Origin: a virus | Lineage: Duplodnaviria; Heunggongvirae; Uroviricota; Caudoviricetes | Virus record (IMG/VR): IMGVR_UViG_2721755663_000004 | DNA length: 32,882 nt | Strand: one strand, 5' to 3' | Shown here: one piece after another, positions 1 to 28,749 of the stretch | Numbering within the stretch: position 1 is the stretch's first letter | How the letters are laid out: each line of letters begins with the position of its first letter | The notes under the pieces: model-generated | Seen by the model: the letters and a program-made list of their open reading frames with translations, nothing else | What the model was told of the DNA's origin: nothing | The model's database searches: none | Program-made: the position numbers and the translations under genes

Positions 1-585
1 CTATTCGATAATGGGTACTGTTGGCCATTCAATATCCGGTGCAGTTGTTGTATTAACACGGTTCAGCAACACCCGATACTTTTTCCAGGCTTCCAGCAAC
101 AAGGTTTCTTCCTCCGTTGCGATTTCCAGATCTACAGCATCCTGAAGTGGCGCAATATGCTCACTGGCTACCTGCATCAGGCTGTTTTTTGTTTCTTCTG
201 CCTCCCGGATCCGGAACAGTTTTTCTGCTTCCGTATCCTTCACCCAGGCTGTGCCGTTCCACTTCTGATATTCCCCTCCCGGCGGCAACCAGGTAACATT
301 TTCCGGTAACGGACCGAGTTCAGAAATAAATAACGCGTCGCCGGAAGCCACGTCATAAACCGTTTTACCCCGATGGTCTTCAACGAGATGCCACGATGCC
401 TCATCACTGTTGAAAACAGCCACGAAGCCTGCCGGAATATCTGGTGGTGCAATATCGGTACTGTTTGCTGGCAGACCTGTATGAGGCGGAATATATGCGT
501 CACCTTCACCAATAAATTCATTAGTTCCGGCCAGCAGATTATAAATTTTTATGGTCCGTGCTTGTTCACTCATTCTGAATGCCAT
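1..585 (-). CDS. tfa: Tail fiber assembly protein (lambda Tfa-like), 194 aa
   Basis: ORF translation [44 protein letters not shown]... is near-identical to my recollection of lambda Tfa (194 aa); stop TAG at 1-3; start overlaps the stf stop. Confidence 0.9.
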
Positions 586-25244: not shown

Positions 25245-25712
25245 TCATCGAAGGCATTGCGTCCTAATGTATTCCTGAAGCGTTCTCAGTGCTGTTTGGT
25301 CGCGGATAATTCCGTCCCGGATATCGAGAACGTTTCGTCCAGCAACTGGAGAGAGTTCGACGGTGGCATCATTGCCCATGCCGGAGGCGCTGGAGGTTTC
25401 GGCAGAGGATGGCACAGGGCATTTTCCTTTGACGAGCACCCTGCCACCATTATCAAGCTTCCGCAGAAGAGCATCATTTTCAGCTTTCGCATCAGCTAAC
25501 TCCTTCGTGTATTTTGCATCGAGCGCAGCAACATCACGCTGACGCATCTGCATGTCAGTAATTGCCGCGTTCGCCAGCTTCAGTTCTCTGACATTTTTGT
25601 CGCGCTGGGCTTTGTAGGTAATGGCGTTATCACGGTAATGATTAACAGCCCATGACAGGCAGACGATGATGCAGATAACCAGAGCGGAGATAATCGCGGT
25701 TACTCTGCTCAT
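25245..25712 (-). CDS. Rz: Spanin inner-membrane subunit Rz (i-spanin), 155 aa
   Basis: [79 protein letters not shown]... matches lambda Rz in the N-terminal two thirds; start overlaps the R stop (ATGA). Confidence 0.85.
25286..25492 (-). CDS. Rz1: Spanin outer-membrane lipoprotein Rz1 (o-spanin), embedded in the +1 frame of Rz, 68 aa
   Basis: [23 protein letters not shown]... with lipobox VAGC and proline-rich [11 protein letters not shown], entirely nested within Rz as in lambda Rz/Rz1. Confidence 0.7.
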
Positions 25713-26206
25713 TGTTTCCCCCACAAACAGACTTCACGCTCAATCTCACGGCGAGTCATCAGTCCTTTCCATTGATTACCGCCAGCGTATGTCCAGCGCC
25801 GTAGCTGATCACATGCGCCTTTGATATCACCGTGGTTTATTTTGCGAAGAAGCGTCGATGTTCTGAAATTGCCAGCACCCACGTTGTAGACGAACGAGTA
25901 AAGAGCGCCGCGCGTTGTTTCCGGTATATCAACTTTTATGTACGGGTTAATTTGTCTGGCGACCGTGGCAAGGTCTTTATTCAGGAGGGCTTTGCATTCT
26001 GCTTTGGTATACGTTTTACCGAGCATGATGTCTTTTCCTGTATGCCCGTGACATACAGTCCATACACCAACAATATCTTTGTATGGTATGTAGCTGACAC
26101 CTTCCAGACCATCGTTACCACTTGGGCCAGTGATTAACACTGATGCTATAGCAATTGCTCCGCCACCAATAGCAGCAGCAACGGCTTTTCGTAATGATGG
26201 AGGCAT
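25709..26206 (-). CDS. R: SAR endolysin (phage-21-type lysozyme R, T4-lysozyme fold), 165 aa
   Basis: Gly/Ala-rich N-terminal signal-anchor-release segment [20 protein letters not shown]; catalytic E-x8-D-x5-T pattern ([16 protein letters not shown]); matches the phage-21 / DLP12 RrrD-type endolysin. Confidence 0.9.
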
Positions 26207-26421
26207 TATTCACCTCTCGCAGCCTTGCGCTTATCTTCTTTAATCTTGAAATAAAGGTTTGTCAGGTACGTCAGCAGGCCAAATACCAGGCTACCCAGCA
26301 CTCCAATTGCCGCCCACTGTGAGGGCGTGACTTTATCTAGCAGCTGTAAAAACCAGTACCCGGCACTACCTGCTGAGGTGCCATAGGCGACACCCGTTGT
26401 TAACTTATCCATGGATTTCAT
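26206..26421 (-). CDS. S: Pinholin (phage-21 S-type holin), 71 aa, dual-start motif
   Basis: [71 protein letters not shown]; two TM segments, charged C-terminus, Met1/Met4 dual start; matches S21 / EssD. Confidence 0.9.
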
Positions 26422-26530
26422 AACCCCACCTCGCAGACAAAGCGGGTGTAAATTGAGGGAATACTACGAAACGTAACAGACTCGGAGTCAGTGAATAACT
26501 CAGGTATTGGGTTATCAGCTAATATCGAGA

Positions 26531-26566
26531 CTCAAAAAATGGAAAAACCCGCTCGACGGCGGGTTT
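26531..26566 (-). terminator. Strong rho-independent terminator on the late-gene strand, about 110 nt upstream of S (tR'-like)
   Basis: Minus-strand AAACCCGC-CGTCGA-GCGGGTTT followed by TTCCATTTTTT; 8-bp stem at plus 26545-26552 / 26559-26566. Confidence 0.55.
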
Positions 26567-26749
26567 AAGCTGTGTGACGAAGTAACCACTCTTAACAGCA
26601 TAACCAATTTTTTACGTACGTAAACCACTAAATGATATTTGCGAGAATGCTACCGAGTATTGAAAACACTACTACAAATACATAAGCAAATCTCAACAAA
26701 TAACCAACAAATAATTTCCAGTGTTATTTTTAGCCGGTTTAAATTGAAC

Positions 26750-26790
26750 CTTCAAATTATAGAGCACTTATAAATAACAGCCATTAATAT
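26750..26790 (-). promoter_or_regulatory. Candidate late promoter (pR'-like): perfect -10 TATAAT on the minus strand, weak -35
   Basis: Minus-strand TATAAT at plus 26756-26761, about 190-220 nt upstream of the tR'-like terminator (lambda pR'-tR' spacing is about 200 nt). No convincing -35. Confidence 0.25.
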
Positions 26791-26993
26791 AAATTGGCTA
26801 ATAGATTTATTTTTATTCAGCCAAGAGCCATGAATAGGATTCGATAGAAAAAAGTTCAGATAAAAATAGAGATCTACTTCACAAATCAAACGAGAAACCA
26901 AAACTTACATCTTGAAATAATCACATTGATTAGATGAATATTTATCGCGCAGTGACATCATTTTTTAATAATAGTTCAAAAAAAGGGCTCACG

Positions 26994-28091
26994 ATGAAAA
27001 AATTAACAGTGGCAATTTCTGCTGTAGCTGCATCAGTACTGATGGCGATGTCTGCTCAGGCAGCTGAAATTTATAATAAAGACAGTAACAAGCTGGATCT
27101 GTACGGGAAAGTTAATGCTAAGCACTACTTCTCCTCTAATGATGCAGATGATGGTGATACTACTTATGCCCGTCTTGGCTTCAAAGGTGAAACCCAAATC
27201 AACGATCAACTGACTGGTTTCGGTCAGTGGGAATATGAATTCAAAGGCAACCGCGCTGAATCTCAAGGTTCCTCCAAAGATAAAACCCGTCTTGCCTTCG
27301 CTGGCCTGAAATTCGGTGACTACGGCTCCATCGATTACGGCCGTAACTACGGTGTAGCATACGACATCGGTGCGTGGACTGACGTCCTGCCAGAATTCGG
27401 TGGTGACACTTGGACTCAAACCGACGTGTTCATGACTCAACGTGCAACTGGTGTTGCAACCTATCGTAACAACGACTTCTTTGGTCTGGTTGATGGTCTG
27501 AACTTTGCTGCTCAGTACCAAGGCAAAAACGATCGTAGCGATTTCGATAACTACACCGAAGGTAACGGTGATGGCTTCGGTTTCTCTGCTACCTATGAAT
27601 ACGAAGGATTCGGTATCGGTGCAACTTATGCGAAATCTGATCGTACCGACACTCAGGTTAATGCAGGGAAAGTTCTTCCTGAAGTATTTGCTTCCGGTAA
27701 AAATGCAGAAGTTTGGGCCGCAGGTCTGAAATATGACGCTAACAACATTTACCTGGCCACTACCTATTCTGAAACCCAGAATATGACTGTATTTGCTGAT
27801 CACTTCGTTGCTAATAAAGCTCAAAACTTCGAAGCTGTTGCACAATATCAGTTCGATTTCGGTCTGCGTCCGTCCGTTGCTTACCTGCAATCTAAAGGTA
27901 AGGATCTTGGAGTATGGGGCGATCAGGACTTAGTCAAATATGTTGATGTAGGTGCAACCTATTACTTCAACAAAAATATGTCTACTTTCGTTGATTACAA
28001 AATCAACCTGCTTGACAAAAATGACTTCACTAAAGCACTCGGTGTAAGCACTGATGACATCGTTGCTGTAGGTCTGGTTTACCAGTTCTAA
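26994..28091 (+). CDS. nmpC: OmpC/OmpF-family general porin (NmpC / phage PA-2 Lc-like), 365-aa precursor
   Basis: [23 protein letters not shown] signal peptide then [24 protein letters not shown]... ending ...VAVGLVYQF; AAAGGG RBS before ATG 26994; orientation opposite to the late genes. The track ORF has a 20-codon upstream extension. Confidence 0.9.
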
Positions 28092-28228
28092 TCTGATTAC
28101 GAAAAAGATATGTTGCGGGAGGCGTTGCCTCCCCAACATATAAGTGGCTCCCTCAAGCCACTTCCTTTAGGAGCACAACCTTGCTTCTAACTATATAAAC
28201 CTTCTGTTATATATTACCCTTTATTTTT

Positions 28229-28255
28229 GGGGGCGTCTCAACGCCCCATTTTTAA
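28229..28255 (+). terminator. Rho-independent terminator downstream of the porin gene
   Basis: GGGGCGT-CTCA-ACGCCCC (7-bp stem) followed by ATTTTTAATAATTTTT on the plus strand; two weaker hairpins precede it (28117-28133, 28142-28161). Confidence 0.5.
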
Positions 28256-28280
28256 TAATTTTTAGTAAACAATTGGCATA

Positions 28281-28664
28281 TTAATTAGAGTTATTAACAA
28301 CGATATCCATCTCTAACCGGATATCTAATGCCATTAACATCCCTTCAATTATACCCTCAGCCTTCTGTAACCTTTTCCCGATATAACCATCAGAGCAGCA
28401 ATGCTTACCTGCCAGTGACATGAATGTCATACCGACTACATAATAATCTACTAATAAATCATGCAAATCGCTGTTGTTCTTTTTCAGACGGGCCATGCAC
28501 CCGCAAATGATCATCGCGTCATCGTCACAACATTGTGGGCGAGATTTTACTTTTGAAGGAATTAATCCCTTAAAACCGGCGGCAATGGACGACCAGGTCA
28601 CATCTTCATGATTATTAGCCGCCCACGCTCCCCAACGCTCAAGAACCATCTGAATATCACGCAT
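28281..28664 (-). CDS. Q: Late-gene antiterminator Q (short 21/82/DLP12 QuuD-type), 127 aa
   Basis: [60 protein letters not shown]... with Cys cluster (zinc-finger-like); position upstream of the lysis cassette. Confidence 0.8.
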
Positions 28665-28749
28665 CAACTTACTCCACAAAACTCAGACCAGAACGCCAAT
28701 TACAAGCAAAAATCAACAAAACAGTATTAGTTGATTGTTATCTCTGACT

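Follow-up and report, generated by a model that had tools for sequence, protein, structure and literature searches.

The window, that is, the whole stretch of 32,882 nucleotides (nt) considered here (IMG/VR virus record IMGVR_UViG_2721755663_000004, Caudoviricetes), is a lambdoid prophage in which the late genes are read from the - strand. Its gene for the late antiterminator Q is separated from the lysis genes by a porin gene that runs in the opposite direction, and the spacer between porin and holin measures 572 nt, with a guanine-cytosine (GC) content of 34%, or 29% over 26600-26999. Within this spacer, positions 26624-26534 of the - strand very probably form a late promoter unit of pR' type, comprising a promoter, a Q-loading region and an early terminator that serve an antiterminator of the Q933W/DLP12 family, and the unit is split from Q by a reverse-oriented porin cassette of 1.7 kb. 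The features on which this reading depends are listed below in the order of late transcription.

28281..28679 (-), Q antiterminator gene (PF06530; Q933W/DLP12 QuuD type; Pfam E 1e-53)
26994..28091 (+), porin gene (NmpC/Lc family), cargo in reverse orientation, placed between Q and the late promoter (Pfam Porin_1, E 5e-157)
26624-26619 (-), -35 hexamer TTTACG
26611..26624 (-), perfect palindrome TTTACGTACGTAAA, -34 to -21, overlapping the -35 hexamer and unique in the window; candidate Q-binding element
26597..26602 (-), -10 hexamer TATGCT, with a 16-nt spacer from TTTACG; aligns with TATCAT, the annotated pR' -10 of 933W
26590 (-), +1 (A) of the late promoter; homologue of the Shiga toxin (Stx) phage start mapped by differential RNA sequencing (dRNA-seq), and K-12 Cappable-seq start U00096.2:576452 = NC_000913.3:577229
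26574..26594 (-), conserved start-site and initial-transcribed block TAAGAGTGGTTACTTCGTCAC, -4 to +17; identical in the relatives found by BLAST
26534..26566 (-), intrinsic terminator, with its stem at +25 to +46 (26566-26545) and a U-run to 26534 (terminator scan, fold and homology)
26206..26421 (-), class II (S21-type) holin/antiholin with dual starts at 26421 and 26412, the first late gene (Pfam PF04971, E 2e-35; phage 434 annotation)

The late promoter lies about 30 nt upstream of the terminator. The hairpin of the latter, AAACCCGC-CGTCGA-GCGGGTTT, has a loop of 6 nt and folds with about -12 to -14 kcal/mol, and UUUUUCCAUUUUUU continues from it to 26534. Set out as a row, the promoter of the window reads TTTACG, TACGTAAAAAATTGGT, TATGCT and GT TAAGAGTGGTTACTTCGTCAC before the terminator is reached, and that of 933W reads TTTACG, ATCGTAAAAATCTGCA, TATCAT and GA TAAGAGTGGTTACATTGCCAC, again with a terminator after it. 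No second copy of the palindrome or of the conserved block is found elsewhere in the window, and none stands beside Q. The block from -4 to +17 is presumed to be the site of a sigma-dependent pause and of a small 5' stem, and within it AAGAGT (-3 to +3), with the A and T that are critical in a -10-like element, is a candidate pause element whose assignment is not secure.

The identity of the unit follows primarily from homology. When 26800-26422 was compared with phage genomes by sensitive BLAST, 356 records were returned; the 36 porin-carrying phages among them match most of the query, and the others match only 26625-26543. This shorter segment is 77-78% identical over 83 nt to 933W and VT1-Sakai, where the corresponding DNA overlaps the end of Q and is annotated as 'pR' putative late promoter', 'qut' and the first rho-independent terminator, so that 26625-26543 is homologous to a pR' already annotated or mapped for the Q933W/DLP12 (PF06530) family. 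The segment is also matched in hundreds of records of Stx phages. A faint similarity to the 3' end of Q upstream of 26625, seen in one alignment, is not claimed as a remnant of that gene.

The second line of evidence comes from published transcription starts. In Stx phages the pR' start was located by dRNA-seq, 258 nt upstream of the 3' end that Term-seq places at tR' (Sy et al., PMC7547250). Since the coordinates of NC_002695.2 differ from those of that paper, the start was located from the length of 258 nt together with a uniform shift of 142; on the Sakai/933W sequence it is the second-last base, A, of TAAGAG, 7 nt after TATCAT, and the window base aligned with it is A26590. For K-12, the Cappable-seq table of Ettwiller 2016 (PMC4782308) gives two + strand starts in the spacer, at U00096.2 576081 (relative read score 90) and 576452 (1.7). 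The porin-holin spacer, aligned with nmpC-essD, shows only four differences between the window and K-12 DLP12, so that what has been published on K-12 can be carried over almost directly. With an offset of +777, position 576452 becomes 577229 and corresponds to window 26590, which coincides to the base with the start predicted from homology. Published starts on near-identical (K-12) or homologous (Stx phage) DNA thus place an active sigma70 promoter at this site. The supplements of SMRT-Cappable-seq have no entry for the late-promoter locus, and a search of the literature for Term-seq at essD found nothing usable. With +1 at 26590, only 24 nt before the stem, the terminated RNA should be about 50 nt long and not about 200 nt.

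A late promoter of this kind is already known: annotation and a mapped start exist for the pR' of 933W, and the literature describes Q-type control of the lysis operon of DLP12. In the Stx phages 933W, H-19B, Sp5 and Sp15, pR' drives stx and the StxS precursor. These promoters share with the window an identical start-site block, TAAGAGTGGTTAC, the -35 TTTACG, the 16-nt spacer, the position of the -10 and the start base, together with the type of palindrome (TTTACG-AT-CGTAAA versus TTTACG-TA-CGTAAA) and a homologous first hairpin terminator. They differ in arrangement: in Stx phages the 3' end of Q and the promoter overlap, the block starting 20 nt after the Q match, whereas in the window the promoter is 1.7 kb away; in Stx phages a second terminator, tR', follows at +258 and then the transfer RNA and stx genes, whereas the window has the first terminator only, with the holin 113 nt further on. 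The small RNA StxS, which is part of the Stx leader, has no counterpart in the window. The Q protein itself is 79% identical to Q of 933W and lacks the C-terminal tail of about 18 residues whose coding sequence overlaps pR' in that phage; in the K-12 annotation it starts at the ATG equivalent to 28664. The same module as in the window is found in phage 434 (99.3% identity over 601 nt), in PA-2, with its lc gene, and in the quuD-nmpC-essD region of DLP12 in K-12. The porin gene is intact in the window and broken by IS5 in K-12 and phage 434B. In the records examined (434, PA-2 and K-12 RefSeq), the late promoter and terminator carry no annotation.

More distant systems share the logic of this arrangement to different degrees. 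Phage lambda, with its pR'-tR' leader (6S RNA), follows the logic proposed for the window in combining a constitutive promoter, Q loading at a promoter-proximal pause, a terminator before the lysis genes and a short RNA in the lysogen; it has no sequence homology with the window and a different Q family, and its leader of 194 nt directly follows Q, in contrast to the displaced leader of about 50 nt seen here. Phage 21, whose pR'/Q21 complexes are known from structures 6P18 and 6JNX, has a Q that is a distant match to that of the window (E 7e-8), an S21-type holin and a Q site upstream of the -10, where the window has its candidate site. The Q21 site consists of two direct TGAGCA repeats around -21 and -13, and the window has a clade-specific palindrome at -34 to -21.

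Conservation of the unit was followed by an IMG/VR search for the conserved block and by a separate genome search seeded with the Q protein that did not require the block, which between them yielded about 150 loci and 97 distinct variants of the promoter. In every locus with enough upstream DNA, except L068, a Q of the family lies upstream on the same strand, and in about 110 loci this Q is 20 to 2,900 nt away. The -10 has the form TAnnnT at a fixed position in 90 of the 97 distinct variants, and a strict hairpin with a U-run ending at +45 to +70 is present in 75 of the 97. These terminators recur with many unrelated stem sequences, which argues for selection on termination itself. In the IMG/VR set the block is invariant partly because the search pattern required it; in the Q-seeded set, TAAGAGTG is kept across genera and the bases after it vary. 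A small stem, GUGG(U)...(G)UCAC, could also be drawn from +2 to +17 (26574-26589), paired in 88% of cells (19 distinct variants), and one of its pairs changes from G-C to A-U in Xenorhabdus, Providencia and Izhakiella; this covariation is weak and is not relied on.

The core of the palindrome, which overlaps the -35, switches with the clade of Q without exception in 105 loci, whatever cargo intervenes between gene and promoter. The cores are as follows.

TTTACGTACGTAAA, Q clade of the window, DLP12 and 434
TTTACGATCGTAAA, Q clade of 933W
GCGGTCCGC, GCGTACGC, TGTTATAACA, TGGAATTCCA, TTCGTTACGAA, other Q clades

As the palindrome co-varies with the clade of Q, it is the best candidate for the Q-binding element. 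TGAGCA, the repeat of the phage 21-type site, does not occur in 26640-26590.

A mechanism may be proposed from what is observed, namely the homology, where transcription starts, a -10 and terminator that are conserved, and a Q gene linked to the unit. RNA polymerase with sigma70 would start constitutively at A26590 from TTTACG-N16-TATGCT and, in the absence of Q, would stop at the hairpin and U-run, from +25 to about +57, releasing an RNA of about 50 nt, so that the holin, endolysin and spanin genes would stay off apart from leak-through. Q, encoded at 28679-28281, would recognize a DNA site in the promoter, for which the palindrome TTTACGTACGTAAA (-34 to -21) is the likeliest candidate, and would load onto polymerase paused in the conserved initial transcribed block. 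The polymerase carrying Q would then be resistant to terminators and could read through the hairpin into the S-R-Rz genes. Such a scheme agrees with the background on Q proteins, which act after initiation; known pR' promoters are constitutive (PMC7547250), and in lambda, 82 and 21 it is established that Q can load only if transcription has begun at the promoter that belongs to it. For DLP12, the passage of PMC7918800 that cites Rueggeberg 2013 gives the lysis operon as controlled by its Q-type antiterminator.

Several observations weigh against this reading and have to be set beside it. The two hexamers each agree with the consensus at only 4/6 positions (8/12 together), and for this reason the consensus scan did not list the promoter; no clear -10-like pause element could be assigned in the late unit; and Q21 binds direct TGAGCA repeats, not a palindrome. 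The offset of +777 between U00096.2 and NC_000913.3 was set by consistency and not from a conversion table, and it is the value that makes four local starts purines at the correct -10 spacing, which 776 and 778 do not. The K-12 signal equivalent to 26590 is weak, with a score of 1.7 compared with 90 for the one equivalent to 26961, and this may reflect silencing by H-NS or poor capture of an RNA of about 50 nt. The terminator raises a further difficulty. In 933W and Sakai Sp5, the first hairpin and U-run, at about +27 to +49 (positions 862-884 of locus L003 and 672-694 of L009 in the survey), look like a good terminator, and the mapped pR' RNA ends at +258, so much transcription evidently passes this hairpin; either the hairpin leaks in vivo, or RNAs of about 50 nt went undetected. 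By analogy, the hairpin of the window may be a partial terminator, and, unlike the Stx phages, the window has no second one behind it.

The start equivalent to 26961 belongs to a group of promoters in the divergent leader of the porin gene.

26945..26977 (-), upstream late-strand promoters in the divergent porin leader (K-12 Cappable-seq start 576081; primers of PMC7918800)

Here a sigma70-type -10, TATTAT (26973-26968), precedes by 7 nt the start A26961, which equals K-12 576081 and is the strongest late-strand start in the spacer, a point that also weighs against a simple picture of the late unit. Beside or overlapping it lies a sigmaE-like GAACTA-N16-TCACT with +1 near 26945, as deduced from the -121..+650 amplicon and the primers given in PMC7918800. 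A transcript from A26961, a base 33 nt from the divergent porin start codon, would open with the AUG of a leaderless open reading frame of 18 codons (the region spans 26905-26977). Both Q-type and RpoE control of essD-rrrD-rzpD have been reported for DLP12 (PMC7918800), and the promoters at 26977-26945 are the probable source of the expression that the DLP12 lysis genes show without Q, which the hairpin at 26566-26534 would attenuate. A stronger version of this idea would have the lysis genes driven mainly from 26977-26945, by the sigma70 start at 26961 together with RpoE, with the 26566-26534 hairpin as an attenuator and the pR' homologue as a decayed relic. In its favour are the K-12 Cappable-seq signal, about 50-fold stronger at 26961 than at 26590, and the RpoE control of the DLP12 lysis cassette which PMC7918800 cites as published, the reporter used there spanning -121 to +650. 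Against it, the promoter, block and terminator match those of plaque-forming phages with the same module (434, PhiR and the ev phages, 96-99% identical), and the -10, the terminator and the palindrome matched to Q are evidently under purifying selection. By analogy with the known Q systems (lambda, 82 and 21), which load only after initiation at the cognate promoter, transcription from further upstream would not be expected to acquire Q. The two routes are not mutually exclusive and can coexist, and the idea that the upstream promoters dominate and pR' has decayed appears improbable.

Two other positions for the late promoter could be considered, and both are rated lower still. The sequence-only reading of this region had proposed a late leader of pR'/terminator type between porin and holin, cut off from Q by the porin cassette, and the homology to 933W and the K-12 start bear this out; the terminator it had pointed to at 26566-26534 indeed belongs to the late leader, as the homologue of the first terminator of 933W and VT1-Sakai. 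It had, though, placed the promoter at a TATAAT 160 nt upstream of the one described here, with a leader of about 200 nt ending at 26566-26534 as in lambda pR'-tR' (6S RNA). This hexamer is present on the correct strand (26761-26756), it is a perfect -10 located 190 nt before the stem of a good terminator whose U-run ends 113 nt before the holin ATG (26421), both distances agreeing with those that reading had given, and DLP12 keeps it. Nevertheless, at least one TATAAT occurs on the late strand in 48% of shuffles of the 572-nt spacer (P about 0.48); that reading itself had allowed for a chance match. The best -35 for this site at 17-nt spacing is ATGGCT, with 3/6 matches, the site is missing from the output of the consensus promoter scan, and PA-2 has TATGAT where the window has TATAAT. 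The hexamer lies in AT-rich DNA of the porin cassette, which relatives with other cargo do not have, their homology starting from about 26625, and the nmpC/essD spacer has been catalogued as an H-NS-bound 'promoter island'. The published K-12 map contradicts the proposal, there being no + strand Cappable-seq start between U00096.2 576081 and 576452, where one at about 576293 would be expected. The argument that a poor -35 is what a Q-dependent promoter should have does not hold either, given that Q acts after initiation. The TATAAT is most likely a chance match in the AT-rich regulatory region of the porin, its use as the late promoter is very unlikely, and the spacing of about 200 nt that resembles the 6S geometry of lambda is coincidental. 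The other position is the canonical one for pR', directly downstream of Q (28280-28145), with a terminator at 28141-28101; Q-modified polymerase would then cross the porin gene in antisense and read through 26566-26534 to the holin. A strong late-strand hairpin with a U-run does stand about 140-180 nt after the Q stop codon. On the other hand, the consensus scan shows no promoter-like - strand site there, and no copy of the palindrome or conserved block is present; the DNA is found only in porin-carrying phages; K-12 has no + strand start between 573406, inside Q, and 575093; and the element specific to the Q clade sits at 26624-26611 instead. A late start next to Q, which the sequence-only reading had named as the finding that would speak against a displaced leader, is thus not seen in K-12 Cappable-seq, and this position is regarded as scarcely credible.

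The other features of the neighbourhood complete the picture.

29249-28887 (-), rusA
28230..28255 (+), probable porin terminator, a hairpin and T-run adjoining the Q stop codon (terminator scan)
28101..28141 (-), hairpin and CUUUUUC directly after Q that overlap the 3' end of the porin gene (fold -21.3 kcal/mol, z -5.1)
26422..26533 (-), what remains of the 5' leader before the holin, with a stem-loop over the dual starts
25709..26206 (-), signal-arrest-release (SAR) endolysin, a lysozyme (Pfam PF00959; phage 434 annotation)
downstream of the endolysin (-), Rz/Rz1

Three hairpins bracket the porin cassette on the Q side (28095-28262). The one at 28101-28141 is probably a terminator for transcription that leaves Q without being antiterminated, and would keep it from running antisense into the porin gene. 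At the other end of the leader, a stem-loop (CACCCGC...GCGAGGUGGGG) at 26400-26450 of the - strand spans the ribosome-binding region, the holin ATG at 26421 and the ATG at 26412; such a stem-loop over dual starts is known for S genes of S21 and lambda type. Further late-strand starts have been recorded in K-12 by Cappable-seq. One lies inside quuD (573406; window about 28437), near a promoter-like TTTGCA-16-TATTAT at 28467-28440, and two are antisense to the porin (575093 and 575453; window about 27949 and 27589). The first of the antisense starts is 85 nt from the end of IS5 in K-12 and so may not exist in the copy of the window, which is free of this insertion sequence. In the Rfam search the sole family above its gathering score in the window was IS009 (RF02111), a full-length match of 230 bits at 44-242 (-), and nothing relevant to the late leader was found; at E<=1 only a sub-threshold Trp_leader match appeared there, driven by the terminator.

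The position of the porin cassette may be part of a broader pattern. Among the relatives, the Q-promoter distances group into discrete classes, one of 20-100 nt and many from 0.6 to 2.9 kb. The class of 20-100 nt, presumably the ancestral one, is the most frequent in the Q-seeded search across other genera (Xenorhabdus, Photorhabdus, Providencia, Trabulsiella and Pantoea). About 20 of 23 insertion classes carry low-GC genes that face the other way, and at least 20 distinct insertions of 0.6-2.5 kb can be told apart, nearly all of them on the opposite strand and with 31-42% GC. Besides 26625-28280 of the window, the loci concerned are L006, L011, L017, L019, L027, L030, L031, L033, L043, L049, L051, L058, L062, L083, L097, L099, L102, L103, L108, L109, L118 and L119. 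Their cargo includes, in addition to the porin, KwaB of the Kiwa system (PADLOC E 2e-126) with a membrane partner, a KAP NTPase (PADLOC PDC-S20, E 1e-177), an HNH-like PDC-M68A protein, a lipoprotein-like open reading frame, and several two-gene sets of unknown kind with a membrane protein. At the C-terminus of the Q family, an LEMD motif common to all members is followed by complete divergence, with tails of 1 to 24 residues (window 28281-28305; L003, L006 and L008), and the left junction of the insertions therefore falls within the final few codons of Q. Between the Q stop codon and the palindrome there may be a dedicated and recurrent slot for reverse-oriented, low-GC cargo flanked by terminators. 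That such a slot exists and, jointly, that the clade-switching palindromes of 8-14 bp are Q-binding elements can be put forward only tentatively, with slightly less than even confidence. No description of a slot at the Q-pR' junction, or of a defence hotspot at Q, was found in the literature searched, which is not proof of novelty.

The analysis corrects a plausible but wrong promoter call and places the late promoter, its start and the early terminator in lysis modules of 434/PA-2/DLP12 type, for which explicit coordinates are useful in annotation. The porin gene lies outside the late operon, in contrast to stx, which is downstream of the homologous promoter; being upstream of pR' and insulated by terminators, it would be spared antisense transcription on lytic induction. 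If the slot is real, its cargo would, from its place upstream of pR', be expressed in the lysogenic state and, again unlike stx, escape late transcription, and the survey of relatives suggests the Q-pR' junction as a general slot for cargo and defence genes. If the palindromes do bind Q, they would imply a dimeric, palindrome-reading mode of recognition, unlike the direct-repeat mode of Q21, and the correspondence between palindrome and Q clade could then predict Q specificity, for example, among the Q alleles of Stx phages that differ in toxin output.

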